Shown here: positions 43,982-63,829 of the stretch, in pieces
How the letters are laid out: each line of letters begins with the position of its first letter
How positions within the stretch are numbered: the stretch's first letter is position 1
NCBI GenBank assembly: GCA_964462115.1
Contig: CAYWWA010000002.1
Location: forward strand, 6,560-70,559
Direction: 5' to 3'
Source of the DNA: an uncultured Candidatus Saccharibacteria bacterium
GTDB lineage: Bacteria; Patescibacteriota; Minisyncoccia; Phycocordibacterales; CAIZIN01
Length of the DNA: 64,000 bases
The notes under the pieces: model-generated
What the model was told of the DNA's origin: nothing
Seen by the model: only the letters and a program-made list of their open reading frames with translations
The model's database searches: none
Translations under genes and position numbers: made by a program

Positions 43982-43985
43982 ATTT

Positions 43986-44786: not shown

Positions 44787-44837
44787 GAAAAAAAGAAGCA
44801 CACACGGTTTTAAAACCATGAGTGCTCTTTGGGGCTA

Positions 44838-44945
44838 CTAGCGCCCTTGTCCGCGGTTCTGCGACCGCTTCTCATAGCCCTTCGGCTTTTTGCCAAAAGG
44901 CCGGCGGTCACGTCGCCGCTGGCGGCTCTTGCCTGTTTTTGCCAT
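44838..44945 (-). CDS. 35-aa Arg/Lys-rich peptide (MAKTGKSRQRRRDRRPFGKKPKGYEKRSQNRGQGR); possible ribosome-associated micro-protein
   Basis: Strong SD GGGAGGTGA 8 nt upstream of the ATG; consensus promoter just upstream; GC-rich; the 67-aa ORF-track frame includes promoter sequence. Confidence 0.5.
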   Translation of the reverse strand: MAKTGKSRQRRRDRRPFGKKPKGYEKRSQNRGQGR

Positions 44946-44972
44946 TTTACTTTTCACCTCCCTTCTCTTAGT

Positions 44973-45001
44973 ATTATAGCATATTTGAGTTTTTTTGTCA
45001 A
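44973..45001 (-). promoter_or_regulatory. Consensus sigma70 promoter TTGACA-N17-TGcTATAAT on minus strand driving the 35-aa peptide gene
   Basis: Reverse complement gives gCTTGACAaaaaaactcaaataTGCTATAATactaagagaagGGAGGtgaaaagtaaaATG. Confidence 0.55.
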
Positions 45002-45041
45002 GCATTAAGTCCAAAAAGTGAGTATTTACCTTAAAAAACAA

Positions 45042-47910
45042 CTACCTGTCTCCACAATAAGCACTATAAAATTCTTCAGCTTTATCTACTCCATCAACAT
45101 AAATTTCCGTTGGCTCCTTACGAAAACCAATGGTGTTAATATTTAAATTATTGATATAAACTGTCCATAAATTATTCAGGGACAGACTGGTTTTATCACA
45201 ATAAAATTTAAGCTTGGATGATTCGCTTAAACAGTCTTGAAATTTACTATCTGTAATATTACTCCAAAGAGTTGAAGCTTGGTAGCTAGCAATTAAATCA
45301 GCTGGCACACAAATTTTTAAGACGTTAGCATCAGTTAGGTTAATAGAGTTATAAGTGGAAGAATAAGGTGTGAGAATGGTTGGACTGTGAAGGTAAGCAG
45401 TAACTTTAGGCGAAGCGGAAGCACCAGCTAATCCAAAAACATTATACATTTTTGCATTTAACATCAACTGAGAACCAGACCAACCCATAAACCAGTCTAT
45501 CTCATTTAATCGACTATTACCATAGTGGAGATAGTGCATAAAATAAGTTCCGATAGAACTTGGTGACCAATCTTTAAGGGGGGTTAAATCTATTGACCGT
45601 TTTAAATAGGTATTATAATTATGAGTATAAGCGAGAAAATAAGTTCCAATACTGCTTGGGCGCCAGTTTTTTAACGGGCTTAAATCTATTACTTCACAAA
45701 CATTGTCTCCAGGATTAGTATAACAGTTATAGCTGTGGGTATAAGCTAAAAAAGAATTAGGTATGCTAGGTATATTCCAATCAGATATTGGTGACAAATC
45801 AATCGGCTTGGTTAGATATGTATTATAATAATGCGTGTAAGCTAAAAAATAAGTAGAAATGCTTGTTGGATTCCAATCATTCATAAAAGATAAATCTAAT
45901 GGTTCAGTCGCTCCGCTATAACCAAAAGTGTAATAGAAAAAATAGCTACTGCCAATATTTGACGGTCTCCAACCTGATAAAACCTGATAACTAGGAACGG
46001 TAAACGATGACGAATTTCCAGCGTAATAAAAAGTGTAATTATTAAAATAATAACCTATGGTGGTAATTCCAGAGATATCACCACCAGCCACTAAGTTAGC
46101 TTCGGTTAAATATCGACAACCGTAAAATAGATGAGACATAAAATAATTTCCAGTGCTGACTCCACTCACAGGTAAAAAACCATAAACCGGTAATTGTTCT
46201 ACTGAAATAACTTTATTTTTATTAGCCTGTAGGTTGGATAAAGTAATTGCCGAGTGAAAACCAAAAGCCGATAGCCAACCGCGAGACGGAGAGGCTGTAG
46301 TTGGATAAATTATTATTGTATGCTGTCCAGTGGATAAACCTGTCAGGTTTATTCCGGTATTAGCCGCTCCAGTTCCAGTATAACGGGCCGCTCCCCCACC
46401 ATCAATTTGGACTAGCCAATCATAGGCGCCACCCAATACCCCTCCGTTATAACCACCGGTTGGGATTGAGAAAGTGCCGTCGGTGGTGCTGACGGTGAAC
46501 TTTAGAGCAAATGGTTCCAACTGTATTAAATCCGCAGCAGAAAAATAATAAACCCTAAAAGTGCCAGTTTGAATAGCGGTATTGCCGATTATATCTTCTA
46601 CCGTCAAAGAATAATTATAGACCACACCATTGTTATCTCCATCGGTGGCACCCAGTAAATTAGTAATATAAATACTATCATTTGGATTAGCCGTAACATT
46701 ATAATTTAACGAAGAGGTTCCATAAGCAAAAGTCATTGTAGCCATCAAGGCACTGGTCTCAACCCGCAAAGACGCTGGTAAACTTTCCTCAAATGAGACT
46801 GAAGTAATTTTAATAGGAGGAATATAGTTTTCATAATATCCATCCCAATATAAGTAAGGATAACCAGCATTATTATTTTCTCCCGCGCAATCTATTTTCC
46901 AAATAGTATTAGCCGAATCAGCGGTGCAAGAAATATCCCAACTTGAAAAAGTTTGTGATGTCTTCATTTGCGCAGTGGTCTTCGGTTGAGTATTACCAGT
47001 AGTGTTAGTATAGCCAGAAAGATTTTGATCATAAAAAGTATTAGTGGTAGTAAACCCCCCATAAGCCTCACCAGTAAAACCACCACAAAGGCCGCCAGCA
47101 CAGGTTACCTGACCAGCAGAATAACAATTAGTGCAAGAACCACCGGTGGAACCCTGTCCAAAACCAGAAGTCCGTCCGTCGAAAGCATAATCCTCAAAAA
47201 CTGAAGAACGAGAATAGGAGTTTGATACTGGCGCATTAATTAATCCAGTAAAACCGCCGTTTTGGCCCCGACGGGCGATTACCTCGTTAAAACTAAACGA
47301 TTCAGAAACAGTATTACTGTTGTAAGCAGTGTGAGCAATTAGACCGGCTACTTGGTTTCCTTCATTGTTGCTGCTGTCTCTATTGCCGGTGATCGTTCCA
47401 CCATTACATCCCACCCTGGTCACTGTAGAATTATTTAACTGCCCCACCAAGCAAGCCACATAACCTATACCAGTGCTATTTGTGTTATACAGTCTTAAAT
47501 TTGAGATGGTGGCACCATTAGTTACACCAAAAAGCGCCTGAAAACCAGAGGTGGCTTGTGTGCCAGTTGGTCTATATAGTGTCAAATTATAAATATTAAA
47601 ATAGTTTCCATTTAGTTGACCAGAAAAAGCTGTAGTGACATTTCCAATCGGCACAAAGCCGGCTCCACTGTTCCAATTTACCGTATCAGAACAATCAACA
47701 TCTTGGGTTAAAATATAATTTAAACCCAAACCTGTAGTATTGATATTTTGTAACTGGGAACAGGTGGAAATTTCATACCAACCATCACTGTTCGAATCTG
47801 TAGGCAAATCCCCAGAATCGTAAGCTGCCAAAATCAAATTGCTTGATAGCAGAAACAAAAAAACCAAAGCGAAAAGGAATTTAATTGGTTTTAGCTTGCC
47901 ACCCATAATC
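45042..47910 (-). CDS. Large secreted/surface protein (~956 aa): GLUG-like beta-helix N-region, C-terminal DUF285/BspA-like repeats
   Basis: Signal peptide; FSGQLNGNYFNIYNLTLYR resembles the F.G.fdGnGhtI.NL beta-helix start motif; C-terminal ~32-aa repeats IDLSPLKNWRPSSIGTYFLAYTHNYNTYL; start taken after the minus-strand TGCTATAAT at 47928-47936. Confidence 0.55.
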
Positions 47911-47927
47911 ATAAAACTATGCATGTT

Positions 47928-47936
47928 ATTATAGCA
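47928..47936 (-). promoter_or_regulatory. Extended -10 TGCTATAAT upstream of the surface-protein gene
   Basis: Reverse complement of attatagca. Confidence 0.4.
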
Positions 47937-47984
47937 TTATTTTATGAGGAAAAAACAAAATTTGTTGAAATCAATGATAAAAAT

Positions 47985-49844
47985 TTAATTATTCTTTTTC
48001 TTTCTTTTCAGCATGCGCTCCAGATATTGACCAGTGTAAGATCCAGTTTTTTTCCAAGTGTCCGCCACTGTCTCTGGTGTGCCTTTAGCGATCAATTTTC
48101 CTCCTCCGATTCCTCCCTCAGGACCAATGTCAATTATATAGTCAGCACATTTAAGAAAATCTAAGTTGTGTTCAATCACCACCACCGAGTTTCCTTTATC
48201 CACCAATTTTTGCAGAATCTCAATTAGCTTTTTCACATCTTCATAATGCAAACCAACTGTGGGCTCATCTAAAAGATAAATAGTTTTTTGTAAATTCTGA
48301 CGGTATAATTCAGCAGAGATTTTGACTCGCTGTGCTTCTCCACCTGAAAGTTCAGTGGCGGGTTGACCTAATTTAATATAACCCAAACCCACATCTTGTA
48401 AGGTAATTAAACGATCGTGGATGGCTGGTATGTCTTGAAAAAAATCCACCGCCTCATCTATCGTCATTGCTAAAACATCGTGAATATTTTTCTTCTTGTA
48501 TTTTATTTCCAAAGTTTCTTTGGTAAACCTTTTACCATCACAAATATCGCATCTAACAAAGACACTCGGTAAAAACGACATCTCCACCTCAATCATCCCA
48601 TTGCCTTCACAGGCTTCACATCTACCGCCCGGCACGTTAAAAGAAAATCTTCCTGGTCCCCAACCGCGAACTTTAGCCTCATCGGCGTTAGCAAATAAAT
48701 CACGAATATGAGTTAAGGCTCCCACATATGATACTGGATTACTACGGGGGGTGCGTCCGATTGGCGACTGATCAATTAAAATTGTTCGTCCTAAATATCC
48801 CGCACCTTCAAAATTACTACAATTAAAAAATTTAGCGCTGCGGTGTTTTTTTTCTAACTGTCCTTGTAAATTTTTATGAATAATTTCATACATTAAAGAT
48901 GACTTTCCACTGCCCGAAACTCCAGTAATACAAACCAATTTTGAAAGTGGAATTTCTAAGTTTAAGTTTTTAATGTTAAAAATATTACCGCCAGTAATTT
49001 TTATTTTCCCCCGATCTTGAGTCCGTCGGTCTGGAATATCAATCTGATCCTCTCCACGTAAATAGGCCAAAGTTTTAGATCCGCTGTCATTTTTTTTGGC
49101 ATCTAATAATTGATCCACCCAACCAGAGACCACTACTTCACCACCATGCACTCCAGCTTTGGGCCCGACATCAACAATATAATCTGAAGCAAAAATAGTA
49201 TCCTCGTCATGTTCTACCACCACAATTGTATTACCCATATCACGCAAATCGGTAATAGTTTTGATTAACTTATCGTTGTCTCGCTGATGCAAACCAATCG
49301 TTGGTTCATCCAAAACATACAAAGCTCCGACTAAACCACTGCCCAGCTGTGAAGCTAGGCGGATTCGCTGAGTTTCGCCACCAGATAGAGTTGTCGCTCG
49401 TCTATCCAGAGAAAGATATTCAATCCCTACGTTAGTCATAAATTTGAGTCGTTCTACAATTTCTTTGATGGGGATTTTGGCAATCTCCATTTCTTGTTCA
49501 GAAAGTTGCTGAACTAAGTCAGTAAAAAATTTTTGGCTATCGGTAATAGTTTTTTCGGTCAGCTTCATAATATTCATTTTATCCTTGCTGTCGCCTAAAA
49601 AAATACTTAAAGCTTCTGGTCGCAATCTTTGGCCGTGACAAACTGAACATTCTTCATTCACAAAGAATTCTCTAGTGCCTAAGCCGTTACATTCAGGACA
49701 GGCTCCATAGGGTGAATTAAAAGAAAAAAGTCTCGGCTCAATTTCAGGAAAAGAAAACCCATCATAAGGACACATGAATTTTGCCGAAATCATTTTGTAG
49801 TCGTAGTTTATTTTTTTATTTTTAGAGTCGGGCCGAGTTGACAT
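47985..49844 (-). CDS. uvrA: UvrA C-terminal fragment (619 aa: Zn-finger insertion region, end of ABC module I, complete ABC module II)
   Basis: CPYDGFSFPEIEPRLFSFNSPYGACPECNGLG, LSGGETQRIRLASQLGSGLVGALYVLDEPTIGLH, second Walker [29 protein letters not shown]; resumes where the fragment at 59408-60325 stops. Confidence 0.8.
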   Translation of the reverse strand: MSTRPDSKNKKINYDYKMISAKFMCPYDGFSFPEIEPRLFSFNSPYGACPECNGLGTREFFVNEECSVCHGQRLRPEALSIFLGDSKDKMNIMKLTEKTITDSQKFFTDLVQQLSEQEMEIAKIPIKEIVERLKFMTNVGIEYLSLDRRATTLSGGETQRIRLASQLGSGLVGALYVLDEPTIGLHQRDNDKLIKTITDLRDMGNTIVVVEHDEDTIFASDYIVDVGPKAGVHGGEVVVSGWVDQLLDAKKNDSGSKTLAYLRGEDQIDIPDRRTQDRGKIKITGGNIFNIKNLNLEIPLSKLVCITGVSGSGKSSLMYEIIHKNLQGQLEKKHRSAKFFNCSNFEGAGYLGRTILIDQSPIGRTPRSNPVSYVGALTHIRDLFANADEAKVRGWGPGRFSFNVPGGRCEACEGNGMIEVEMSFLPSVFVRCDICDGKRFTKETLEIKYKKKNIHDVLAMTIDEAVDFFQDIPAIHDRLITLQDVGLGYIKLGQPATELSGGEAQRVKISAELYRQNLQKTIYLLDEPTVGLHYEDVKKLIEILQKLVDKGNSVVVIEHNLDFLKCADYIIDIGPEGGIGGGKLIAKGTPETVADTWKKTGSYTGQYLERMLKRKKKNN

Positions 49845-50033
49845 TATCCAGATAAAATACCATAGTTTTTATTAAAAATCAAACAGAATATTTTATATGC
49901 CAATAACACATCCTCTTTATAAAGAGCAAATTATACGCCAATTTTTTAAACGATAAAAGCTAAATTCTATTGAGTCATTTAAGTTAAATAACAATTTATG
50001 CTATAATAGCCAAATTAAGCAAGCTTAAGACCT

Positions 50034-50690
50034 ATGAACAACAACTTCATCAAATATGCGGAAAAATATGCCAAGGTTAACCTTACAGAAGCCCAAACAG
50101 ATAAATTTCAAGCCTTGGCGGATTTTTTATTAAGTTATAATCAAAAAGTTAATTTAACCGCTATTCGTGATTTAGATGGAGTTTATCTTAAACATTTTAT
50201 AGATAGTTTGACTGTCAATTTAGCTGTGAGCGAAATTGAAAAAGCTGGGACCAAAATTCAAAACCTTGCCGACGTCGGCAGCGGTGCCGGCTTCCCCGCC
50301 CTGCCTTTAGCTATTATCTATGAAGATAAAAAAATTACCGCTATTGATTCTGTTGGTAAAAAAACTAAATTTATTAGCGAAGCAGCGAAAATTTTAGGAT
50401 TAGAAAATATAAAAGTCATCAACGATCGAGCGGAAAAAATTGTCCTTCAAAAGTTCGGTTTAGTTGTCTCGCGTGCCGTAGCCCAACTGCCCCAACTTTT
50501 AGACTGGTGTCTACCACTAGTAAAAAATGGCGGCTATTTTGTGGCAATGAAAAATGCTGAAACTTCAGACCAAGAAATATCTGACTCTCAGAAAAATCTT
50601 CAACAATCTTCAGTGGAAATAATCAATCGCTTTAAGATTGAGATTCCAAATCTTACCAATCGCGAACTAATAATTTGTAAAAAAAAATAA
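50034..50690 (+). CDS. rsmG: 16S rRNA (guanine527-N7)-methyltransferase RsmG/GidB
   Basis: LADVGSGAGFPALPLAI SAM motif; TGCTATAAT at 49998-50006 upstream. Confidence 0.8.
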   Translation: MNNNFIKYAEKYAKVNLTEAQTDKFQALADFLLSYNQKVNLTAIRDLDGVYLKHFIDSLTVNLAVSEIEKAGTKIQNLADVGSGAGFPALPLAIIYEDKKITAIDSVGKKTKFISEAAKILGLENIKVINDRAEKIVLQKFGLVVSRAVAQLPQLLDWCLPLVKNGGYFVAMKNAETSDQEISDSQKNLQQSSVEIINRFKIEIPNLTNRELIICKKK

Positions 50691-50766
50691 ACTATTTTTT
50701 ATAAATAAATAGTTTATTTTAAAATTTATAACTAAGTTAGCAAAATATGCCAAGTTATTTATCTTT

Positions 50767-53700
50767 TTACTTTTCTACCACAAAAGTATTTCCTCTACTT
50801 CTACCAAAAATATCCGGCATATATAAAGATTCAATTTTGGCAGGCAGGTGTTGATATTTTCCAGGTACCAATGCTCGCAAATAATACTCATATTGATAAA
50901 CACCGCTGTTTACTCTTTCACTGTATAAGAAAATTCTGTCATCGTGATTCTCCTCTACGCTTGGATAAAATCTGTTATCAAGTGAAGTGTGTCTAATTAA
51001 ACTTTGATCTTCAGTTGCAAAACTGAAGTTAACAATTTCAAAACCAGCTGGAATATAATCTTCTATTGCAATGTCAGCTGCATTAAACGGCACTGTTAAA
51101 GTTAATCTGCCTTTAATTACATCACCAACTTTAGCAGAAAGAATTGGAATCTTTTGCTCTTCATCATCAAGGCGGAAAAATTCACGAACGACACCCAAAC
51201 CTTCGTCACGAGCTGGTAAATTTTGTACAGGTAAATAATACTTAAACAGTATATCGTAATAGAAATTATTTTTATTTTTAGTATTATCAATTTTTAAGAA
51301 AGTTAACGGCAAAACTTTTTTACGCTCTAGATCATTTATTGACAAGAATTGACTTTGTGTTTCAAAAATATTTTGACCACCAAAATTAAAATTAAATAAT
51401 TCATCACCGTTTAATGTACCAATTAAATCAAAGTCTGCCTCGTTTTCTTTTTGCCATTTCAGATATTGCACCATTGCATCTATCACTTCAAAAGTGTTCT
51501 GTGTGTTACCCCACGCACCCTGATTGTTTCGGCTAGCCAAAAGCCATTTCATGATATTGGAAATCATTACATTTTTATCTTGATGAGCCACAAATACTTT
51601 CAGAGCCAGTGCGGTATTTTTAATAGAGGTTTCATAGAGATTATAGCTGGTATTTTTACCAGGCTTAAAATACGCACCACGACCATCAATGGAAAGTCTG
51701 TTAGTGAATTGCTTATAAATTTCCTGATTATTAGGATACATAATAGCCAAATAAGCTAAAGCTGGACTGCTGATATTTTCGTTTAGATATTGTTTATCAC
51801 TTATAAAGCTTGATACGATAGAATTAATTACTGTATATTTTTTACCTGAAAGATTCAATAAGAATCCAGCTCCAATCAAAGTGTCTTTATCTATTTCTCT
51901 TTGTGTATAACGATTATTTGCTTCGGTTTCAATATATTTTAATGCTTTATTTAAATATTCTTCATCTATTGCAAATCCTGCATTTTTAATAACCAACAGC
52001 CCCTCTACCACCCGCAACGTTAGATAAAAATTTGAATAATAAATTGATGGATAATAAGAAAATCCACCATCCAATTTTTGAGTGGCATAAATTTTCTTAA
52101 GTGTAGAATTTATAATATCATCAATTGTGTAATCAATTCCATCTTTGTTAATTGTTCCAATTTCCCCATCAACATTTTTCAAGTCATAGACGCTACTCAA
52201 AATAGCAACAGAACTCATCGCAGAAGTTAACTGCTCAGAACAACCATAAGGATAATTAACCATGTATTTTAGAGCGTCTTGTAAAAAGACAACTAAGGTA
52301 GCATTGGTATTTATAGTTATTCCACCTTTATCTGCAAGAACATTCTCAGGTATATAAAAATATTCTTTAGAAATATTTTGGTTAGTCATATTGGCTGTCG
52401 ATACTGTTTCGTAAGTTTGGTTTGGGGTAATTTTTATTGTTTGTTCTACTTCATCAACACTATCATTTAATTCAGCTTTCAAAGTAAAAGTAACTTGACC
52501 TTCTACTAATGTTGTCGGTGCTTCAACGTTAAAATAAATTATTTCTGATTTACCAGCATTGATTTTAATTATTCGTTCAGTTTTTTCCAGCAAGTTTAAA
52601 TCCTTACTTTGCAAAGAAACCTTTACACTTACAGACTTATTAGTTTGATTGAAAACCGTAGCTCCCAATTCAAAATTATCACCAGGTACTATAAATCTTG
52701 GTTTAATCGGCGAAACCATTAAATCTTTTTTTGTAGTAAATTCAGCGTAGCTCGCACCAAATTTTGAATCTAAACTTTGAGCTACAACCTCTGCTTGCCA
52801 AGTTGTTAAATTGTCTGGTAAAGTGAAAGAAAGTTGGGTTAACCCTTTTTGATCGGTTTCTGCTTGAGCTATCCAGAAAGCAGTATCTTTAAATTCACCA
52901 CGTTTCTTTGAAGCTAAATCTTCTGCACCATTTCCGCCACCACCACCCTTCGTTCCTGTTGGTATATCCATTTCGTATAAAATATTTTTTAAGTTATGAG
53001 TAGTATTAATGGTATTATAAAAATAATTATAAAAATGAAGCCAAGGGTTTTTCTTTGGATTTCCCTTGAGAGCCAAAACCGACATATCAACTACCGCAAC
53101 AGAAACTTCAGACTGAACGGGGTTATTTTTTTCATCTTTCGATTCAATTTGCAAATTCACATTCTCACCTGGCAGATAAAATGTTTTATCACTTTTAACT
53201 GACAAAAATATTTTCTTTGCATCAGAATTAACACCAAAATCCACATTCCCAAATTTAATCTCTGGTTCATCTGTTAGAAGCAAAACCGATACAAAAATAT
53301 TTGGAGCATAATTTTCTTTAATTAAGAAACTGTATTCTGCTAATCCACCGATCACATCTATAATTTTATAATCAAAAATTACTCCCCGCTCAATTGTAAT
53401 CAGTGCTTTTGCTTTAGCTGCTGGGGATTTAATCAAAATCGTAGCCATATCTCCAACTTTAAGCTCATTTTTTTCTACTACTAAATCTAAACTGTAATTA
53501 TTGTTAGGTGGAACTTGCACGGTTTTATCGCCGTAAATATATAGACTAATAGTGGTGCTGATGTTATTTTTTCTATTATCGCTGCCAACAATTTCAATTT
53601 CATATTCGCCCTCTTCGGCTATTGAAAAATCATTAATGTAGTTGCCGTTTTTATCAGTACCAAGTTTTATCGTTTTAACTTCAGTTGTACTTTTATCATA

Positions 53701-56700
53701 ATGATAATAATAACCACCATCAACCTCTTGTCGTTTATAAATTTCGTAAGAAATTTTTTTAATCTTTGCTATTAAATTAGAAACTGAAATTGGCTTACCA
53801 AAAGTGTCAACAGTTTTAATCCTTAACTTATTTTCACCATCAACATTGGTGTAATATTTATCAGTTTTAGCACCAATGTAATATTCGCCTCTATGTACTA
53901 TAAAAGATTTTTGAATGGAAATTGTTTTACCACTAGCGTCTTGCACCGAAACAGAAACTGTGATTATTTTACTTTTTTCATCATTATCAGATAATTTTAA
54001 TTCTTGTTTAATTATCGCTTGACCATCAGTATTTAAACTGGTTTCACCACGTAATAAATATTTATCACCATAATCACAATTATAGCAATAATACCAACCG
54101 CTTCCAAAGGAAAAATATTCATCAGTATATTTATCAAAATAATAATCTTGCTCAGTAATAGTATAAGAAACATTTCCGCTATCAAGCGGTACACCAAAAT
54201 AATAATCAGCTTGGAGAGATAAATTTAAAGTATCACCACTTAAATATTCCTCCTTATCCGTGACAGCTTCCAGTTTGAAAGCAGCTGGAGTATATTCTTC
54301 TACTGAAAAGTTAAAATATCCATCACTAGCGGTGTTAATCTGATAGCTCCCCAATTTAGCGTCTTTTGGTAAAGTAAATTCACCAGCGAAAGAGCCATAT
54401 TTATTATTTTTTAAAGTTGTTGCAAAAACTTGATCCCAACCTGAATCACGAATAGAGACTTGGATTTCTTGGTCTTTTAGTATCTCATAATTTCCATCAA
54501 AACCAAGTCGTTGTATACCCTTAAAATAAACCACATCACCTGGACGATAAATTGGTCTATCAGTGTAAAGATATGTTTTGAGTGCGTATTCTGCAGTGGT
54601 CCAATTTGAACCAAGCGTATCAGCCCAGTCAGAAATGATTGCATTTTCATTATTATAACTAATTACCGCACCATCAACATAGTTTTCAATTTTAAGTTTC
54701 GCGATTCCATCTTGGTCAGTAAAATTAGTGTCAGATAAAGTTAAGCCATCTCCAAACGCTGTTTGGTCCCAAATTCCATTAACATGCTTATATTGAGATA
54801 CTATCGCACCAGCTATTGGTAACAATGTTTTAGCGTTATTAACCCAATAGATATTTTTACTATTTTCAATTAGATTATCTTGTGGTTTAATTTTTTCTTC
54901 ATAATGGTCACGATTAACTTCTTTTTTGCCGACCGCCAAGTTAGAAACGCTTAAATAAACATGTTCGAACCTCGGTACCTCAAAATCCTCTGCATAGTAA
55001 TCACTCACATAAGTGTAATCTGGATTGTTTAATGTGATAACAAATTGTCCACGAGTGTCAGCAAAATAATCTTTCAAATCAATTTGAAAATAATTATTTA
55101 CAAAATATGTTTTCGGTAAATCAATTCTAGCTGTTTTAATTTCAGTACATTTGTTAGGAGCTGGTTGCTTAATACTTAAACTACCTAATACTTCTAAGAA
55201 GTCAGTCGCATTCATTTTGCAAATTTGTAAATCAACAAAAGTTAAATTCTCTACAGCAAAAGTTAATTTAGTTTTATCTGGTGTGGTAACATTATATTGC
55301 TTTTGTAAATTGTAAATATGTTTATATATGTGTTTCGGTTTAGTGGTGTTAAATTCTAAACTTTGATTTATTTTTTGACCAAACACATCTTCCAAATTTA
55401 AATTCATCAAATAATAACTTTCTGGCAATAAACCATATTTAATACTGGTCTGATATTGACCATTTTGACACTGATTATAGTCGCCTTCTACCATATATGA
55501 TCCTCTCCAGTTATTATAAACTATATAATTTTCCACCACACTCAGGTGCGTCCTCATACCCTCCTCACCTGGTTTTTTAATTGGAGAATTAGAACAAATT
55601 ATCATCTCTGTCAGAGAAGCATCTTTGTCATTATTTTTAGGCAAAGTGTTGTAAATTTGAAATTTAGGATAGGTAGTAAAATGTCCGCTGACATTATCGG
55701 CTTTAGAAATGTATTCAGATCCATCGGATAAAACAATTTTTGGTAAAATGATTTGTAGTTGTTCATTCAAACCAAATTCGTTAGCATTAAAAGAAAGAAC
55801 AATTCTCTGTTTATCATCAACTTTAATACATTCATCTGTTAATCCATTTTTTATTTCTCGCAAATAACCATCTTTATCAGTTTCAGTTTTACAATTCTGT
55901 TGATATTCAACTTTTTTTAAACCCTTAACCTTAAACTCTGTTTTGTCTTTATTTATTTCCTCTGTAAAAACTACTTCAATTTGATCATTAGGATCAAAAA
56001 TATTTTTATCACCACTGTAACCATTTTGGGTAATAATATTAAAACCAGATAAAATATTACCAACAAAGAAAGAATAATTCTGTGAATCACTAAATGGCAA
56101 GTTACCTTTTAGTGTAGAAACCAAACCGACTTTGACGCTGTAGGAAGTATCATAATCCCAGGATTTTTTATGTCCATACTTATCTGTTTTCTGATAAATA
56201 TTTATTTTTGATTTATCTTCGACCTCTAAATATTTTTTAGCTTTTTTGTCATATTTTTTACTCGTGCCATATTCTAAAATAATTTCACTTTTATCACCAC
56301 TGGAGGTGGTAATTTCAATGTCACTCTTAATGCTATCAATATCCACTTCTTGATTGTAGTGCAAGAAAAATGGCGATTTATGAGAGATCTTTTCACTTGT
56401 TTTATTATCCAATCTTAAATGTCGAGTATCAAAAGTAAAAGAAACTGGATCCACAGTTAATCCCTCGATGGAAGTTAGCTGACCAATCTCAACCGTATAG
56501 CGAGTAGCTGGATTAAGTTTATCTTTTGGTAAAAATTGTAACTGACGAGTAGTAGTCCACTTCCATTTTCCATCAACTTTTGGACTGATAGAAATCGGTA
56601 GATTATTTTTTGGCTCTGAAAATGCAGCCGCGACCTGTGCTAACAAGCCCTCACCGTTTTCTTGTTGATCGAGAGTTGTTAAAGCTACCATTGGTCGATT

Positions 56701-57201
56701 AAAGACGATGGTAATCTTTGTATCTTCATCTACCTCTGTATTTTGCTCTGGAAAAACTGCTTCAATTTTAGGATTTTCTGCTACCAAAATATCACCAGAC
56801 ATTTTTAAATTAGCTGTTTCTAGAGAAACATTATAGTAAGTTCCAATTTCTAAATCCTTTTTCGGTTTATAAAGAAGAGCTTGTTCTAAATTATCCCCTT
56901 CAATCTCTACCCAATCACCAGCTATTTTAGGTTCAAAAGAAATATTTTCACGAGCTTCATCTGAAGTAATTTCATTTGGTAATTTAATAGTAATAACCGC
57001 CGATTTAGAAATTGACTCCGGCACAAAGGTTTCCACCACTGCTACTTCTCCAGTATATTTTTTAACACTGTGATCAGAAATATAAAAAGAAAAAAATATA
57101 ATTAAAATCAATGAAATAAAAGTAGAAATAATAATAAAAATCGGCTTGTTTCTGTTTTTATTTTCAACAGACAAACCGGAAACCATTTCTTGATTTTTCA
57201 T
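50767..57201 (-). CDS. Bacterial alpha-2-macroglobulin family protein (2144 aa) with N-terminal TM anchor and thioester motif
   Basis: NYPYGCSEQLTSAM (CxEQ thioester), very large beta-rich ectodomain, divergent from a pbpC-like gene as in yfhM-pbpC; ATG at 57201 sits 6 nt after a TGCTATAAT. Confidence 0.75.
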   Translation of the reverse strand: MKNQEMVSGLSVENKNRNKPIFIIISTFISLILIIFFSFYISDHSVKKYTGEVAVVETFVPESISKSAVITIKLPNEITSDEARENISFEPKIAGDWVEIEGDNLEQALLYKPKKDLEIGTYYNVSLETANLKMSGDILVAENPKIEAVFPEQNTEVDEDTKITIVFNRPMVALTTLDQQENGEGLLAQVAAAFSEPKNNLPISISPKVDGKWKWTTTRQLQFLPKDKLNPATRYTVEIGQLTSIEGLTVDPVSFTFDTRHLRLDNKTSEKISHKSPFFLHYNQEVDIDSIKSDIEITTSSGDKSEIILEYGTSKKYDKKAKKYLEVEDKSKINIYQKTDKYGHKKSWDYDTSYSVKVGLVSTLKGNLPFSDSQNYSFFVGNILSGFNIITQNGYSGDKNIFDPNDQIEVVFTEEINKDKTEFKVKGLKKVEYQQNCKTETDKDGYLREIKNGLTDECIKVDDKQRIVLSFNANEFGLNEQLQIILPKIVLSDGSEYISKADNVSGHFTTYPKFQIYNTLPKNNDKDASLTEMIICSNSPIKKPGEEGMRTHLSVVENYIVYNNWRGSYMVEGDYNQCQNGQYQTSIKYGLLPESYYLMNLNLEDVFGQKINQSLEFNTTKPKHIYKHIYNLQKQYNVTTPDKTKLTFAVENLTFVDLQICKMNATDFLEVLGSLSIKQPAPNKCTEIKTARIDLPKTYFVNNYFQIDLKDYFADTRGQFVITLNNPDYTYVSDYYAEDFEVPRFEHVYLSVSNLAVGKKEVNRDHYEEKIKPQDNLIENSKNIYWVNNAKTLLPIAGAIVSQYKHVNGIWDQTAFGDGLTLSDTNFTDQDGIAKLKIENYVDGAVISYNNENAIISDWADTLGSNWTTAEYALKTYLYTDRPIYRPGDVVYFKGIQRLGFDGNYEILKDQEIQVSIRDSGWDQVFATTLKNNKYGSFAGEFTLPKDAKLGSYQINTASDGYFNFSVEEYTPAAFKLEAVTDKEEYLSGDTLNLSLQADYYFGVPLDSGNVSYTITEQDYYFDKYTDEYFSFGSGWYYCYNCDYGDKYLLRGETSLNTDGQAIIKQELKLSDNDEKSKIITVSVSVQDASGKTISIQKSFIVHRGEYYIGAKTDKYYTNVDGENKLRIKTVDTFGKPISVSNLIAKIKKISYEIYKRQEVDGGYYYHYDKSTTEVKTIKLGTDKNGNYINDFSIAEEGEYEIEIVGSDNRKNNISTTISLYIYGDKTVQVPPNNNYSLDLVVEKNELKVGDMATILIKSPAAKAKALITIERGVIFDYKIIDVIGGLAEYSFLIKENYAPNIFVSVLLLTDEPEIKFGNVDFGVNSDAKKIFLSVKSDKTFYLPGENVNLQIESKDEKNNPVQSEVSVAVVDMSVLALKGNPKKNPWLHFYNYFYNTINTTHNLKNILYEMDIPTGTKGGGGGNGAEDLASKKRGEFKDTAFWIAQAETDQKGLTQLSFTLPDNLTTWQAEVVAQSLDSKFGASYAEFTTKKDLMVSPIKPRFIVPGDNFELGATVFNQTNKSVSVKVSLQSKDLNLLEKTERIIKINAGKSEIIYFNVEAPTTLVEGQVTFTLKAELNDSVDEVEQTIKITPNQTYETVSTANMTNQNISKEYFYIPENVLADKGGITINTNATLVVFLQDALKYMVNYPYGCSEQLTSAMSSVAILSSVYDLKNVDGEIGTINKDGIDYTIDDIINSTLKKIYATQKLDGGFSYYPSIYYSNFYLTLRVVEGLLVIKNAGFAIDEEYLNKALKYIETEANNRYTQREIDKDTLIGAGFLLNLSGKKYTVINSIVSSFISDKQYLNENISSPALAYLAIMYPNNQEIYKQFTNRLSIDGRGAYFKPGKNTSYNLYETSIKNTALALKVFVAHQDKNVMISNIMKWLLASRNNQGAWGNTQNTFEVIDAMVQYLKWQKENEADFDLIGTLNGDELFNFNFGGQNIFETQSQFLSINDLERKKVLPLTFLKIDNTKNKNNFYYDILFKYYLPVQNLPARDEGLGVVREFFRLDDEEQKIPILSAKVGDVIKGRLTLTVPFNAADIAIEDYIPAGFEIVNFSFATEDQSLIRHTSLDNRFYPSVEENHDDRIFLYSERVNSGVYQYEYYLRALVPGKYQHLPAKIESLYMPDIFGRSRGNTFVVEK

Positions 57202-57207
57202 CACTCA

Positions 57208-57216
57208 ATTATAGCA
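57208..57216 (-). promoter_or_regulatory. Extended -10 TGCTATAAT 6 nt upstream of the A2M ATG
   Basis: Reverse complement gives gtttTGCTATAATtgagtgATG. Confidence 0.45.
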
Positions 57217-57278
57217 AAACCAGTACAAAAAAACTGCTTTTTGTGTAAAAGTATTTTTGTGATATGATTTAGCTGTAA

Positions 57279-59393
57279 ATGAAGATTTTTTTGAAAAAAA
57301 TTAAAAAATATAAAAAAAAATTATCTATCTTCTCTATTTTTATCATTATTTTTTTTAGTTTTTCTCTATTTTTATTATTTGACATAAAAGAAAAATATCA
57401 AAACAATTTATCCGTAATCATATATGACAGGAACGAAGAAATTATTTCCATCAAAACAAATATTAAAGATCATTATGTCTATGAAACCAAAGAAATACCA
57501 GATGATTTAGAAAAATTACTACTCAAGAAAGAAGATAGATATTTTTACTGGCATTTTGGAGTTAACCCAGTCAGCAACCTGCGAGCGTTGTGGCAGATTT
57601 CAACCATTCAAAAACATGGCGGGGCCTCCACCATTACCCAACAACTAGCTAAAAACCTACTTGGCAACGAAAATAATCGAACATTTTATAATAAAATCAA
57701 AGAATTATTCTACACTTTTAATTTAGAATTATTTTTTTCTAAAAAAGAAATTTTAACAATGTATGCTAATACTACTTTTTTTGGCAATCAAGCTCAGGGT
57801 TTTGAAACAGCATCACGCATGTATTTCAATAAAGATCTAGCCAAACTAAATCACAATGAGCAAATTTCTTTGCTTGCCACAATCTCTTATCCCAATAATC
57901 GTAACCCATGGAAAGATAGCGAACAAAAATTTGCTACAGCTTTAAATCAACAGATCTCGCCAGACGAAACTTTTACAAAACCGCTGATCAATAAAAATTT
58001 TAATTTTCAAAATGAAGCCAATTTTGAATTAAGCTCTATTGGATTTTCTTGCGAAAAAAGCTGCCGCACCACTATAGATGTAAAAATTACTGAAAAAATT
58101 CGTCAAATTATTAAAGAGTATACCGACAAAGAAAGTTCGCGCGGTGCAAAAAATTCCTCTGTGGTTGTGATTGATCCCAGAAGTGAAGAAATAATTGCTA
58201 TAGTTGGTAGTGTAGATCCTAGTTCTACAAGAAATGGTAATAAAATAAATATGGCAATTAAACCGCGACCGATCGGTTCCACTATCAAACCATTAATGTA
58301 TCTTAAGGGTTTTGAAGATGGTTTGAGACCTTATACCATAGTAGAAGATCGTGAATATAAATATCAAATCGGACTTGGGTTCGCCCAATATCCCAAAAAC
58401 TATGACGGAGCATATCAAGGAGAGGTTTCTCTACATTATGCCTTAAGCAACTCTCTTAATGTACCGTCTGTTAAAGTTTTGGAATATATTGGTTTAGAAA
58501 AATTTTACAATTTTTTAGATCAAAAATTAAAATTTGAACCAATTCAAGATTATGATAATTATCAATATGGTATCGCTCTTGGTGGTCTAGAAATGGACTT
58601 AACTACCCTCACCCACTATTTTACTATTTTTCCACGTTTAGGAAATATCGCCCCGCTTAAGATTTCAACTGATGGGCAAAATAATTTTAAATTGGCTCCA
58701 CAAAATAAAATTGAATCATATCAAGAAATTTCTGATAAAAAATATGTAGCACTAATTCATAAAATAATTTCTGATCGTCTTACTGGTGTTGGTCAATTTT
58801 CACTGGAAAGTTCGCTCAATTTGCCAATAAAAGATTATGGAGTTAAGACCGGAACCTCTCGCGATTGGCATGATTCGTGGGTTGTTGGATATACCGGTGA
58901 TTTTGTTGTGGGGGTTTGGGTTGGTAATACAGAAAACACTTCACTGCAACAAATTTCTGGCGCCCAAGGAGCTGGAGTTGTTTGGAATCAAGTAATGAAC
59001 CTAATGATTAATTCAAAATATAACCACCAAACATCCATTAATACAAGCGATGTTATGCCAATTAAAATCAATAATTCTATTGAATGGGGCCTTACTGATG
59101 ACGATATTGAATTAAGTAAAAATCTGATGAAAGAAGATATTTTAATCTTGTCACCACACGACGAAGATAAGTTTGAATTTGAAAAAACAAAATCTATCCC
59201 ACTAAAAAGTTCACAGCTAGTAGAGTGGACCATTAAAAAACTAACTAACACTGGCGACAAAATTATCTTTTCCGACAGTAAAAAAGAAAGTTTTTGGCAA
59301 CCAAGCGAATCTGGTTATTATCAAATTTTTGCTAAAAATCCGGAAACAAATTTTTCTCAAACTATCTATATTAAAATTCAAGCCGATAAATAG
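57279..59393 (+). CDS. pbpC: Class A penicillin-binding protein (GT51 transglycosylase plus transpeptidase), PbpC-like
   Basis: GT51 motifs EDRYFYWHFG, GGSTITQQLAKNL, KEILTMYANTTFFG; transpeptidase SIGSTIKP (SxxK), SNS, KTGTS; 704 aa; adjacent to A2M. Confidence 0.75.
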   Translation: MKIFLKKIKKYKKKLSIFSIFIIIFFSFSLFLLFDIKEKYQNNLSVIIYDRNEEIISIKTNIKDHYVYETKEIPDDLEKLLLKKEDRYFYWHFGVNPVSNLRALWQISTIQKHGGASTITQQLAKNLLGNENNRTFYNKIKELFYTFNLELFFSKKEILTMYANTTFFGNQAQGFETASRMYFNKDLAKLNHNEQISLLATISYPNNRNPWKDSEQKFATALNQQISPDETFTKPLINKNFNFQNEANFELSSIGFSCEKSCRTTIDVKITEKIRQIIKEYTDKESSRGAKNSSVVVIDPRSEEIIAIVGSVDPSSTRNGNKINMAIKPRPIGSTIKPLMYLKGFEDGLRPYTIVEDREYKYQIGLGFAQYPKNYDGAYQGEVSLHYALSNSLNVPSVKVLEYIGLEKFYNFLDQKLKFEPIQDYDNYQYGIALGGLEMDLTTLTHYFTIFPRLGNIAPLKISTDGQNNFKLAPQNKIESYQEISDKKYVALIHKIISDRLTGVGQFSLESSLNLPIKDYGVKTGTSRDWHDSWVVGYTGDFVVGVWVGNTENTSLQQISGAQGAGVVWNQVMNLMINSKYNHQTSINTSDVMPIKINNSIEWGLTDDDIELSKNLMKEDILILSPHDEDKFEFEKTKSIPLKSSQLVEWTIKKLTNTGDKIIFSDSKKESFWQPSESGYYQIFAKNPETNFSQTIYIKIQADK

Positions 59394-59407
59394 CCTTCTT
59401 TTAATAT

Positions 59408-60325
59408 TTATTCACTTTTAGGAATCCCCAACTGGATTAAACCATCACTTTCTTCCAAACATTTTTCAATCGCTTCAGATAATCTTTCCTTAATTCCTTC
59501 TGCCTTGTAGTTGTTGGCCATCTTTTTAATTTCAGAAATATAAAATTCATCCACCAAAACCGCGATATCGTGTTTTTTGTTTTTAGCTAAGTCAATCCGT
59601 TCACGAAGTTTTTGTTCTGCTCCATCAATCAAAACGTCTTCATAGCCTTTGCTCAATAAATCATACAGCAGTTGGTAATATTCACCCTTACGCCCAACCA
59701 CTAGCGGGGCGTAAAGTTTAATTTTTAAATCATTAACTTCCACCCCAAAGACTTTTTTATCAATTTTACTTGTATCAATCTCTCGCACTAATTTAATGAT
59801 GGTTTGTAAAATTTCTTCACGAGATAGTTTTTTAATTTCACGACCACATTCCAAACAGTGTGGTTTACCAATTCGAGCGTATAAAACTCGTAGGTAGTCA
59901 TAAATTTCAGTGATGGTAGCAACAGTCGAACGCGGATTGTTGGAGTGAGTTTTTTGATCAATTGAAATTGCAGGAGATAAACCAGTAATTTCATCAACAT
60001 CTGGTTTTTGCATTTGATGTAAAAAACGACGAGCATAAGAAGATAAACTTTCCATATATCGCCTCTGCCCTTCCGCAAAAATAGTATCGAAAGCCAAAGA
60101 TGATTTTCCTGAACCAGACAAGCCGGTGATAGCTACAATTTTATTTCGTGGCATTTCCACCGTGATATTTTTCAGATTATGAGTCCTGGCTCCTTTCACT
60201 ACGATTTTATCATCTACTTCTCGTCCAGCCACTGTTTTTTTGCTAGATTTTATTTTTTTTTCACTCTCAGCATGAAAAAGCCGACTAGAACCGCTTGCAG
60301 CCTTATCTTGGACTTTCTTTGACAT
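59408..60325 (-). CDS. uvrA: UvrA N-terminal fragment (305 aa: first Walker A, UvrB-binding/insertion region)
   Basis: [60 protein letters not shown]; ends at the point where the 47985-49844 ORF resumes; TGaTATACT 9 nt upstream of ATG. Confidence 0.8.
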
Positions 60326-60451
60326 AATTCGATAAGTATATCATAAAAAGTGAAAAAACACACTAGAGCTATCTTGGATTGGTTCATAAAAAATATTTTT
60401 TAACAAATAAAATTAGTTGTATTTTTTCCTAAAAAACATTAAAATAAGCTG

Positions 60452-63400
60452 ATGGAAAACAACAATGATAAACCAGTTTTTGTACACCTGCACACTCATT
60501 CTCACTACACACTACTTAACGGTTTACCCAAAGTTCCTGACCTATTGAAAGTAACCCGTAAATATAATATGCCCGCTTTGGCTATTACTGAAAGTGGCAA
60601 CATGTATTCCGCTATTGAATTCTACGAACAAAGTAAAAAAACTAAAGACAAAAAAGGTAACGAACTGGCCCCAGTCAAAGCAATTATTGGGGTGGATTTT
60701 TACCTCTCTCCTCGCACTCGCAAAGATAAAGAAAGTCCGATTGATTTAGAAAAAACTCGCTTGGTATTGTTGGCCAAAAATTTTAATGGCTATCAAAATT
60801 TAATGCGTTTAGTTTCGGCTTCATATCTGGAAGGTTTTTTTGATGGTAAACCCAGAATTGATCGCGAGCTCTTAGAAAAATATCACCAAGATCTTATCGC
60901 TATCATGCCAGATTTTAATGGCGAATTATCTAATATGATTCGCCGTGAAGCTGAAGCAAGTGCTCAAGAAATTTTATCTTTTTATCACCACGTTTTTGCT
61001 GATGATTTTTATCAAGAAATTACTCACCATATTGAAATCGCCGGTCACGAAGAAGGTGTGAAAAAAATAATTGCTTGGAGCCGTCAAAATAAAGTTCAAT
61101 TAGTAGCAGCGCACGATGTCTATTATATCAACTCTGAGGATAAAGCAGCGCGTGATTTAGTGGTAGCAATTGGCAAAAAAAAGAAGCTATCAGAAATGAC
61201 TGATGACGAAGACGCGGATTTTTCCTTTATCTCCCAAGAACAAGCAGCTGAAGCTTTTAAAGATGAGCCTGAAGCTCTATCAAACACCGTTAAGATTGCA
61301 GCGCAATGTAATTTTGAAATTGCATTAGGGGAGTGGAAATTTCCCAACTACATTGTCTCGGACGCGGAAATAGATTTTTCCGATTTAGATCCTGAATTAC
61401 GAAAAATTTCTGATGAACATCTACCCGATTATTGTCGAGATCAAAACAATCCTCTTTACAAACACGATTTAGCTTTACGCAAAATTGCCTACCGAGGAAT
61501 TAAGCTGCGCAATTTGGAAGCAAACCAAGAGGTAATTGATCGCTTAGAATATGAACTTAAAGTCATCCATGACAAAGGTTACCCGCAATATTTCTTAACC
61601 GTGGCAGATTTATTACAGTTCTCTGATGAGCACAATATCTATACCAACATCCGAGGATCAGTGGCTGGTTCACTTACTACTTATTTGACTTATATTACTA
61701 AAGTTAATCCCTTAGAATTTAAACTTCCCTTTGAACGTTTTCTGAACCCCGAGCGTCCGTCAGCTCCCGATATCGATATGGATTATGCCGATAATCGTCG
61801 AGATGATGTGATTGCTTATGCTCGAGGTAAATATGGCGATGATCGAGTGGGACAAATTGGCACCTTTGGCACCATGGCTGCACGTGGAGCAGTTAAAGAT
61901 GTAACTCGAGCTTTAGGCTATAGCTACTCTATAGGTGATCGACTTTCTAAAATGATCCCTATGGGTAAACAAGGAAAAACCGTAGAACTAAAAGATGTGC
62001 TCACCGAAGGTAAAGACAGTTATTCTCCCGAACTGAAAGAGGTTTATGACAGCGATGACAGTGCTAAAACCATTATTGATTTAGCGATGCAAATTGAAGG
62101 TAACGCTCGCCAGGTATCCATGCATGCCGCGGGAGTGGTTATTGCTCCCGGCCCCATTACCGACTATGTACCAATTCAGTTTGACTCTAAAACTGGAGAT
62201 AAAATTATCACTCAATACGAAATGCATGCGGTGGGAGAAGATGGGGTTGGTTTATTAAAGTTTGACTTTTTGGGTATTAAAAATTTATCCATTTTGGCCG
62301 ATGCTGTTAGAAGGATTAAGGAAACCGAAGGGGTGGAAATTGATATTGAAAAAATCCCCTTTGATGATCAAAAAGTTTTTTCTGCTCTTTCTCGTGGTGA
62401 AACTATGGGAGTCTTTCAGCTTGGTGGAGCGGGTATGACTAAATATCTGATGGAACTTAAGCCTACCACCATGTTTGATATTAACGCGATGTTGGCACTT
62501 TATCGTCCAGGGCCAATTGATGAAATTCCAACTTACATTGATGTTAAACATCATCCAGAAAAAATAAAATATATGGATCCCAGAATGGCTGAATATTTAG
62601 ACCAGAGTTACGGACTATTAGTTTATCAGGATGATGTGATGATGACCGCAATCAAACTGGCTGGTTATTCTTGGTTGGAAGCGGACAAATTCCGTAAGGC
62701 CATGGGTAAAAAAATCCCCGAACTGATGGCCGAGCAAGAAATCAAAATCCGCAAAGGTATGAAAGAATTCGGCCATTTAGATGAAAAATTGATTGATACC
62801 ATTTGGCAAAAAATGTTGCCGTTTGCCTCGTATGGATTCAACAAGGCTCACGCCGCTTCTTATGGTCACCTATCATACCAAACCGCTTATCTCAAAACCC
62901 ATTACCCCGCCTGCTATATGTCGGCAGTAATGACGGCTGACGCCGGAGACGTAGAAAAAATTGGTGCCTTCGTGACCGAGTGTAAAAACATTGGAGTAGA
63001 AATTCTTCCTCCCGATGTTAACGAAAGTATGAAAGAGTTTGCGGTTATCAAGGAAAATACAGCCGATAAGGCTTCACGGAAGGAGGTTATCCGTTTTGGT
63101 CTATTGACTATTAAAATGTTCGGTTCCCATATCTCCGATGTGATTATTGAAGAACGAAACAGAAATGGAAAATTCCTGTCTTTGGAAGATTTTTTAACTC
63201 GGATTACCGACAAAGATTTAAATAAAAAAAGTTTGGAAAGTTTAATTAAATGTGGAGCTTTAGATAAATTAGGTGAACGAGGAGAAATGTTGGGTAATGT
63301 AGAATATCTGTGTGAATTCCAACGCCAATTCATCAACAAACCAGAAGGACAGGCTGACTTGTTTGGCGATAGCGATGTTAAAGTCTCATCGTTGAAACTC

Positions 63401-63829
63401 AAAACAATGCGCGAGGCTTCTAAAGATGAAATGTTGATGTGGGAAAAAGAGTTGTTGGGTTTATATATTTCTGGACACCCAATTGATAAATATGAAGAAG
63501 CTTTGTCTCGTCGAGGAGCTACTTTAAAGCAAATCAAACAAACTGCTCGCAACGAACAAACCGTAGTAGCAACCGGCTTAGTTGAATCAATTAGAGAAAT
63601 AAGCACCAAAAAGGGTGATAAAATGGCTTTTGTGCTGATGAGAGATCAGAACGAAGAATTGGAGGTAGTATTTTTTCCTAAAGCTTATCAAAAATTTAAA
63701 AACATTTTAGCAAGCAACATTTGCTTATCGGTCAAGGGCAAATTTAACCAACGAGAAGATTTGGGTGATGTTAAATTTTCAGTTTTGGTGGATGAAGCAA
63801 AAATAATTGATAATAGTAGTGTAAAATAA
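60452..63829 (+). CDS. dnaE: DNA polymerase III alpha subunit
   Basis: PHP domain FVHLHTHSHYTLLNG; polymerase core and OB fold; 1125 aa. Confidence 0.9.
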   Translation: MENNNDKPVFVHLHTHSHYTLLNGLPKVPDLLKVTRKYNMPALAITESGNMYSAIEFYEQSKKTKDKKGNELAPVKAIIGVDFYLSPRTRKDKESPIDLEKTRLVLLAKNFNGYQNLMRLVSASYLEGFFDGKPRIDRELLEKYHQDLIAIMPDFNGELSNMIRREAEASAQEILSFYHHVFADDFYQEITHHIEIAGHEEGVKKIIAWSRQNKVQLVAAHDVYYINSEDKAARDLVVAIGKKKKLSEMTDDEDADFSFISQEQAAEAFKDEPEALSNTVKIAAQCNFEIALGEWKFPNYIVSDAEIDFSDLDPELRKISDEHLPDYCRDQNNPLYKHDLALRKIAYRGIKLRNLEANQEVIDRLEYELKVIHDKGYPQYFLTVADLLQFSDEHNIYTNIRGSVAGSLTTYLTYITKVNPLEFKLPFERFLNPERPSAPDIDMDYADNRRDDVIAYARGKYGDDRVGQIGTFGTMAARGAVKDVTRALGYSYSIGDRLSKMIPMGKQGKTVELKDVLTEGKDSYSPELKEVYDSDDSAKTIIDLAMQIEGNARQVSMHAAGVVIAPGPITDYVPIQFDSKTGDKIITQYEMHAVGEDGVGLLKFDFLGIKNLSILADAVRRIKETEGVEIDIEKIPFDDQKVFSALSRGETMGVFQLGGAGMTKYLMELKPTTMFDINAMLALYRPGPIDEIPTYIDVKHHPEKIKYMDPRMAEYLDQSYGLLVYQDDVMMTAIKLAGYSWLEADKFRKAMGKKIPELMAEQEIKIRKGMKEFGHLDEKLIDTIWQKMLPFASYGFNKAHAASYGHLSYQTAYLKTHYPACYMSAVMTADAGDVEKIGAFVTECKNIGVEILPPDVNESMKEFAVIKENTADKASRKEVIRFGLLTIKMFGSHISDVIIEERNRNGKFLSLEDFLTRITDKDLNKKSLESLIKCGALDKLGERGEMLGNVEYLCEFQRQFINKPEGQADLFGDSDVKVSSLKLKTMREASKDEMLMWEKELLGLYISGHPIDKYEEALSRRGATLKQIKQTARNEQTVVATGLVESIREISTKKGDKMAFVLMRDQNEELEVVFFPKAYQKFKNILASNICLSVKGKFNQREDLGDVKFSVLVDEAKIIDNSSVK

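Follow-up and report, generated by a model that had tools for sequence, protein, structure and literature searches.

Gene fission is well known, and a case in the DNA-damage sensor UvrA would be new. In Nanoarchaeum equitans, several protein genes are split between separate loci, and complete genomes and, in some cases, biochemistry support these splits. The ATP-binding cassette (ABC) heads of Rad50 and SMC proteins have been rebuilt in laboratory constructs from separate fragments, one with the Walker A motif and the other with the signature and Walker B motifs. Genes that lie in collinear pieces are also known from the sigK/skin element of B. subtilis, from the cyanobacterial nifD and fdxN elements, and from the split-intein DnaE. 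Canonical class I UvrA (2R6F; T. maritima 3PIH; C. thermocellum 9GXK) is a single polypeptide of ~860–960 residues with two ABC modules, a UvrB-binding domain, and three zinc modules. Here, we analyzed a 64,000-nucleotide stretch of contig CAYWWA010000002.1 (the window) from an uncultured Candidatus Saccharibacteria bacterium, in which uvrA is not one gene but two open reading frames (ORFs) of 305 and 619 amino acids (aa), which we call the N piece and the C piece.

The two pieces together contain the same two ABC modules, UvrB-binding domain, and three zinc modules as canonical UvrA, with an identity of >60% in the ATPase core. They differ from it in being two polypeptides, split after the UvrB-binding domain, and in two clade-wide features, the absence of the insertion domain and a CPYD motif in zinc module 1. 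As in the N. equitans split genes, the ORFs are intact and complementary, are cut at a domain boundary, have their own expression signals, and come with no splicing element; unlike those genes, the uvrA split is seen on a single contig of a metagenome-assembled genome (MAG), and is conserved in no other genome. The Rad50 and SMC heads are a precedent, in another ABC family, for building an ABC domain from two chains, one with Walker A and the other with Walker B and the signature, but the split reported here is natural and also parts the two halves of zinc module 1. Like skin, nifD, fdxN, and DnaE, uvrA is in two collinear pieces kilobases apart; unlike them, it has no recombinase, flanking repeats, or intein, and the intervening DNA consists of housekeeping and envelope genes. 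The nearest relative, P0122 at locus L003, shares an extended loop with the window, as well as tRNA-Met and the S8-SecY genes downstream, but it is one ORF, whereas the halves in the window are 9.6 kb apart and have new stop and start signals. The reading that the locus supports best is a true fission of uvrA, restricted to this lineage, in which a rearrangement cut the gene at a disordered hinge loop. Beyond this, we infer that the pieces may be expressed, assemble, and act in repair as a functional two-chain UvrA, to which we give a probability of roughly 0.5.

The N piece (59408–60325, minus strand) encodes a lysine-rich N-terminal tail, the Walker A motif of ATPase module I (GLSGSGKSS), the start of signature domain I, the first CxxC of zinc module 1 (CLEC), and the UvrB-binding domain, which Pfam recognized as PF17760 (UvrA_inter) at residues 198–299 (E = 3.8e-19). 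The C piece (47985–49844, minus strand) starts with MSTRPDSKNKKINYDYKMISAKFMCPYDG and carries on with the remaining half of zinc module 1, with zinc module 2, and with what is left of signature domain I and of ATP-binding domain I (signature LSGGETQR, Walker B, and H-loop), up to the entire ATPase module II with zinc module 3; the motif VIEHN also lies in this piece. The Walker A, signature, Walker B, and H-loop of both ABC ATPase modules are therefore present, spread over two ORFs. By sequence, the zinc modules are CLEC (N piece) and CPYD (C piece) for module 1, CPEC and CSVC for module 2, and CEAC and CDIC for module 3. The N piece aligned with residues 21–252 of G. stearothermophilus UvrA (2R6F) and residues 23–255 of 9GXK, and the C piece with residues 263–303 and then 417–960 of 2R6F; the E-values against solved UvrA structures (1e-86 to 1e-219) show that the match is not a chance resemblance. 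Over the 924 codons of both ORFs, there was no stop and no frameshift, and all clade-typical zinc ligands are kept. A tblastn search with P0122 found no UvrA-like fragment in the window besides these two ORFs.

Residues 58 and 59 of the C piece align to residues 303 and 417 of 2R6F, that is, the insertion (DNA-binding) domain at residues 304–416 (~113 residues) is missing. This domain gives many DNA contacts in the UvrAs that have been studied (PMC7835731). It is also missing in all ~120 Paceibacteria relatives (P0122–P0240; UvrA of ~860–900 aa), so its loss is unrelated to the uvrA split. Across the clade, zinc module 1 has CPYD in place of its second CxxC (FMCPYDGFS at 49760–49780 of the window), which leaves three cysteines and an aspartate as candidate ligands, and in zinc module 2 of Paceibacteria UvrA only ~14 residues separate the two CxxC motifs (CPECNGLGTREFFVNEECSVC). 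The NCBI call for the C piece is 596 aa long (P0121) and begins at Met24, not at the first ATG.

To place the break, we compared both pieces with their closest relative, which is in each case the intact Paceibacteria UvrA P0122 (895 aa), at identities of 79.0% and 78.9%. That both halves share this nearest relative at equal identity speaks for descent from a single gene and against a chimera of two organisms. In tblastn, residues 23–287 of P0122 mapped to 60211–59417 and residues 295–895 to 49826–48003. When the pieces are rejoined, the loop at the junction has 25 residues, compared with 24 in P0122 (which reads GLIKIAVPKGSNKDIVSGQEKISYDHKLISSKFMCPYDG there in an alignment of relatives) and 9–10 in most relatives; the cut therefore lies inside an insertion specific to a small lineage made up of the window sequence and P0122. 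On the N side, the DNA can be aligned to the sister gene as far as CCT AAA (AGT); on the C side, the homology is back by GAC TCT, possibly from TCA. At most one codon was lost at the break, and the last two sense codons and stop of the N side (GAA TAA) and the ATG of the C side are new, with no counterpart in the sister; ~2 residues on the N side and ~1–6 residues on the C side are unmatched.

In an AlphaFold2 model of P0122 (mean predicted local distance difference test score, pLDDT, of 72), residues 289–299 had a pLDDT of <50 and no secondary structure, and were flanked by strands at 280–286 and 302–308. The break loop of 25 residues makes up 2.7% of the protein. Cryo-electron microscopy has shown the UvrB-binding domain to be mobile and tied to the body via a flexible zinc-containing region (PMC12796330). 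The cut is therefore at about the least disruptive position in the protein. A preliminary description of the locus had assigned the N piece to UvrA through the UvrB-binding domain and the C piece to the rest, with both on the minus strand, collinear, and with no residues missing or duplicated between them. The ORFs are where it placed them; PF17760 and the alignment to 2R6F confirm their extents, the mapping of P0122 confirms strand, order, and completeness, and the alignment to full-length UvrA sets the breakpoint within the 24–25-residue loop.

Each uvrA piece also appears to have its own start and promoter-like signal. The -10-like elements that had been proposed ahead of both start codons proved to be extended -10 boxes (TGnTAnnnT), each 9 nt before the ATG: TGATATACT at 60335–60343 (minus strand) for the N piece, of a short-leader/leaderless promoter type, and TGGTATTTT at 49854–49862 (minus strand) for the new ATG of the C piece. 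Such a box ends 2–12 nt before 12 of the 48 gene starts in the window, compared with 3.1% of all ATGs, an enrichment of ~8-fold, and many window genes carry TGnTATAAT 6–7 nt ahead of the ATG. The pattern suggests that leaderless or very short-leader mRNAs may be widespread in this genome; a literature search on leaderless mRNAs in Patescibacteria found nothing useful. Roughly one gene start in four is preceded by an extended -10 box (TGnTATAAT) that ends only 3–10 nt ahead of the ATG (e.g., 203, 5031, 7547, 14228, 25727–26614, and 57204), and no Shine-Dalgarno sequence is visible at these starts.

We then asked whether the split is found elsewhere. The best matches came from Paceibacteria and 'Taylorbacteria' of the Patescibacteria, and the ~120 best matches of the C piece were all full-length UvrAs of 858–954 aa, the nearest being P0122 (77%). 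Intact uvrA was found in related genomes, where the preliminary description had suggested looking for it: all 81 related loci (L003 and 80 species-representative Paceibacteria loci) were contiguous and none was split, a comparison that has little power on conservation of the split, given that the collections hold no relative above 79% identity. Among species-representative loci with complete coverage, uvrA was uninterrupted in 70 of 71, indicating that the gene is normally kept intact in this group. Short N-terminal matches had raised the possibility of a recurrent split, which we rejected: most are contig-end partials, and the remainder are single lesions elsewhere in the gene, nonsense in L001 (codon 337) and L168 and a frameshift in L002 (a long-read case) and L167. 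The ends of the short matches are spread evenly over residues 239–544, with no peak at the loop, and the apparently 'broken' uvrA genes of L006, L039, and L047 end at natural stop codons. Single-lesion uvrA genes with intact uvrB/uvrC neighbors occur in several other Paceibacteria assemblies. In L001, a TAA follows zinc module 2 (11009–11011); in L168, a TGA replaces the second cysteine of CPEC (4264–4266); L167 has a frameshift at ~1700–1930, and L038 a short out-of-frame stretch at 12047–12079. These lesions may be errors, young pseudogenes, or tolerated breaks. A full-text literature search on UvrA and split genes returned no described split uvrA.

The pieces are 9,563 bp apart (49845–59407), and three genes lie between them. 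These are rsmG (50034–50690, plus strand), for a 16S rRNA m7G methyltransferase of 218 aa (PF02527, GidB, 4.9e-46); a gene for a bacterial alpha-2-macroglobulin (A2M) of 2,145 aa (50767–57204, minus strand), with MG, bait-region, TED, and MG10 domains by Pfam; and pbpC (57279–59393, plus strand), for a PbpC-type bifunctional penicillin-binding protein (PBP) of 704 aa, with Transgly and Transpeptidase domains by Pfam and full length relative to its homologues, which cover residues 4–704. The gaps between the genes of the block are 189, 76, 74, and 14 bp. The divergent spacer between the C piece and rsmG (junction J1, 49845–50033, 189 bp) holds a putative rsmG promoter, TGCTATAAT, as well as that of the C piece, and the head-to-head spacer between A2M and pbpC (junction J3, 57205–57278, 74 bp) holds extended -10 boxes for A2M (TGCTATAAT) and pbpC (TGATATGAT). 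All three genes thus have the same kind of box, which indicates that the interrupting genes use the promoter style of the host. For A2M, the listed start is a GTG, but the ATG next to it at 57201 follows the -10 box by 6 nt, the spacing found most often in the window, and is the likelier start. The convergent 3' ends of rsmG and A2M share an AT-rich hairpin with a perfect 14-bp stem (50684–50720; folding z = -2.9), probably a bidirectional terminator, while the convergent pbpC and N piece are separated, stop to stop, by 14 bp (junction J4, 59394–59407).

To understand how the interruption arose, we compared the surroundings with L003. Downstream, the two loci share the order uvrA, antisense tRNA-Met, S8-L6-L18-S5-L15-SecY-GluRS, and on to FtsW, and from this synteny the C piece lies at the ancestral site. 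The genes found upstream of uvrA in L003 (sigma70, a P-type ATPase, a Na/Ca exchanger, tRNA-Met, and Fmt) are in the window at 20420–26614, in the opposite relative orientation; put differently, the uvrA-to-FtsW block (37267–60325) is inverted relative to the sigma70-to-Fmt block when compared with L003. We reasoned from this that inversions have occurred that end close to the 5' side of uvrA. Between the inverted block and the sigma70-to-Fmt block lie ~10 kb of other genes (26694–36923, including a UvrD-like helicase), and the Band_7 and GT8 genes upstream of uvrA in L003 have no match in the window. In both genomes, the ribosomal cluster begins at S8 after uvrA/tRNA-Met (40653–44384 in the window and 13395–17118 in L003), and L14-L24-L5-S14 are missing upstream of S8, so the spc-type operon is broken there.

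The arrangement of the intervening genes points away from a simple insertion. As in other bacterial A2M-PbpC pairs, a large A2M lies next to a PbpC-type PBP, but the two genes are head-to-head in the window, whereas they are tail-to-tail in 23 related loci (among L084–L108 and L164–L166), namely 20 metagenomic loci with A2M homologues (35–48% identity) and the three loci of the closest PbpC homologues (56%); there, the 3' ends of pbpC and A2M abut or overlap by 11–14 nt. The permuted order argues that the interruption is not a simple cut-and-paste of a conserved module, and the insertion of a block into uvrA, as put forward in the preliminary description, is therefore too simple an account. 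Its statement that the block lacks mobile-element genes did hold: Pfam detected only GidB, A2M, and PBP domains there, and no recombinase, transposase, or integrase. We rejected insertion of a mobile element, since transposase and integrase genes are absent and the borders show no terminal repeats, target duplication, or tRNA; nor were flanking direct or inverted repeats found at the junctions. From the gene orders, we infer that at least two double-break events made the split uvrA and the permuted pair, either as nested inversions or as excision and re-entry of a circle. The ancestral order that this predicts, pbpC-rsmG-A2M, was looked for and not found. In L087, L089, and L103, genes lie between the 3' ends of pbpC and A2M, and these are unrelated to rsmG.

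A single tandem duplication with random loss was also considered, and enumeration showed that it cannot yield the present order from an intact uvrA and a tail-to-tail pbpC/A2M pair. The break regions have an A-rich similarity of 14/17 positions (CTAAAAGTGAATAAATA vs CTAAAAATAAAAAAATA); the C-side uvrA homology to L003 starts upstream of it, and we did not rely on this similarity as microhomology. The G+C content at third codon positions (GC3) is lowest in the window for A2M (0.22) and pbpC (0.25), with other genes at 0.25–0.38 and rsmG typical in composition, a weak hint that A2M and pbpC may have been acquired more recently from another low-GC Paceibacterium.

In the scheme that we favor, a chromosomal rearrangement in one Paceibacteria lineage would have cut uvrA in an unstructured loop peculiar to this lineage, where the chain passes from the UvrB-binding domain back into signature domain I, and would have placed 9.6 kb of Paceibacteria-type genes (rsmG, A2M, and pbpC) between the halves. 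The N half would have gained a stop two codons past the break, and the C half would have acquired an ATG right where the break fell, preceded by an extended -10 box. Both halves would still be expressed and would assemble non-covalently into a two-chain UvrA, to which the N chain would contribute the Walker A of ATPase module I, half of zinc module 1, and the UvrB-binding domain, and the C chain the remainder; the last strand of the N chain would pair with the first strand of the C chain across the former loop. Transcription from separate short-leader promoters could make the N piece a separately dosed subunit of the damage sensor. The intact ORFs, the position of the break in a loop, and the native-type promoter and ATG on the C piece favor function.

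Several observations weigh against a functional two-chain UvrA. The cut leaves ATP-binding domain I and zinc module 1 to form from two chains, and neither uvrB nor uvrC lies within the window. Both pieces are on one 83.8-kb MAG contig with a cluster size of 1, and as no second genome shows the split, its conservation under purifying selection is not seen. In a relative-rate test against the sister P0122, the figure that we trust for constraint, the window sequence had 61 unique changes vs 35 in the sister (p = 0.01, 1.7-fold), and 16 vs 5 at columns ≥90% conserved (p = 0.03, 3-fold). Among 120 sequences, it also deviated most often at invariant columns (5/323, and 16/404 at the 97% level), although this raw count is confounded as an outlier sign by the isolation of the sequence; pruning to ≤78% pairwise identity removed most of the effect and left the query third of 14 and no outlier. 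Among the deviations at invariant columns are such radical substitutions as a K-to-P change in FNVKGGRCE (zinc module 3) and a D-to-A change within the UvrB-binding domain. Some 26 changes make up the excess, which is spread roughly as neutrality predicts, and a neutral episode of ~26 changes left both ORFs stop-free in ~10% of substitution-only simulations.

Interruption usually kills a gene, and the same rearrangement may have broken uvrA for good: UvrA-dependent excision repair would then be lost, the two ORFs would be young pseudogene remnants, and the stop, ATG, and -10 box at the junctions would be fortuitous in AT-rich DNA. We regard recent inactivation as a serious contender, if on balance somewhat doubtful. 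The faster change than in P0122, especially at conserved columns, the lead in invariant-column deviations, the near-neutral pattern of the excess with its ~10% of stop-free simulations, and the restriction of the split to one genome all fit such a gene, as do the single nonsense and frameshift lesions in uvrA of other Paceibacteria (L001, L167, and L168). On the other hand, the break falls in a disordered loop of 25 residues, at most one codon was lost, and no indels or stops have accumulated over 2.8 kb. Moreover, the C piece has its in-frame ATG right at the break, and the native-type box ahead of it keeps the 9-nt spacing seen in the N piece, whereas only ~3% of ATGs have such a box. Only 16 of the 61 lineage-specific substitutions fall in the 54% most conserved columns, so most changes still avoid conserved sites, and the acceleration of the uvrA lineage is modest.

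Far less probable, in our view, is an assembly artefact, in which the true genome would carry uvrA intact and pbpC and A2M tail-to-tail, the segments having been wrongly joined. It would account for an A2M/pbpC order unlike that of all 23 related loci and for the low GC3 of these two genes, and the contig is a single one with no independent assembly. However, it would need three to four false joins within 10 kb, with no repeats at any junction; the junctions resemble native gene boundaries, with promoter-like boxes in J1 and J3 and, between rsmG and A2M, a hairpin that resembles a terminator; and neither the GAA TAA of the N side nor the ATG and promoter of the C side is part of an intact uvrA. 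The equal identity of both halves to the same sister and the promoter style common to the block and the rest of the window also speak against false joins. Of the three options that the preliminary description had listed without choosing among them, the chimera is thus disfavored, and the dead gene and the two-piece gene both stand. That the halves are collinear and on the same strand is the sole support for a further idea, restoration of uvrA at the DNA, RNA, or protein level by programmed excision, intron splicing, or split-intein trans-splicing, and this idea is effectively refuted. The block has no recombinase, no spare coding space in its short gaps, and no flanking direct or inverted repeats, and its excision would take out rsmG, a housekeeping gene. 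An E-value scan of 44000–61000 with Rfam found no intron and only tRNA, and the unmatched residues on either side of the break are far too few for intein halves.

Beyond the split gene, dnaE (60452–63829, plus strand; Pfam) forms the upstream flank and is divergent from the N piece. The downstream flank (40653–47924, minus strand), assigned by synteny with the sister locus, comprises orf960 and S8-L6-L18-S5-L15-SecY, with tRNA-Met at 44710–44786 on the plus strand, antisense to these genes. The 960-aa orf960 (45042–47924, minus strand) has no Pfam match and sits between the C piece and tRNA-Met, where L003 has only ~200 bp; L047 has weak homologues (31–34% identity) a few kb downstream of uvrA. 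The window also contains two UvrD-family helicase genes (7547–9076 and 28213–30138), one of them with a PD-(D/E)XK nuclease domain (AddAB-like), indicating that some DNA-repair capacity is kept nearby.

As a single locus in a single MAG, the case has limited wider impact until it can be confirmed. If uvrA is dead here, the locus would be a snapshot of the loss of excision repair in a reduced-genome Patescibacterium, and nested rearrangements, not mobile elements, would be what breaks genes there. If, as we favor, the pieces form a functional two-chain UvrA, this would be the first natural split UvrA found, no case having come up in our full-text search. The damage sensor would then tolerate a break at the hinge of its UvrB-binding domain, and an ABC nucleotide-binding domain and a zinc module could form across two chains, which would help in designing split UvrA reporters and in considering the motion of the UvrB-binding domain.

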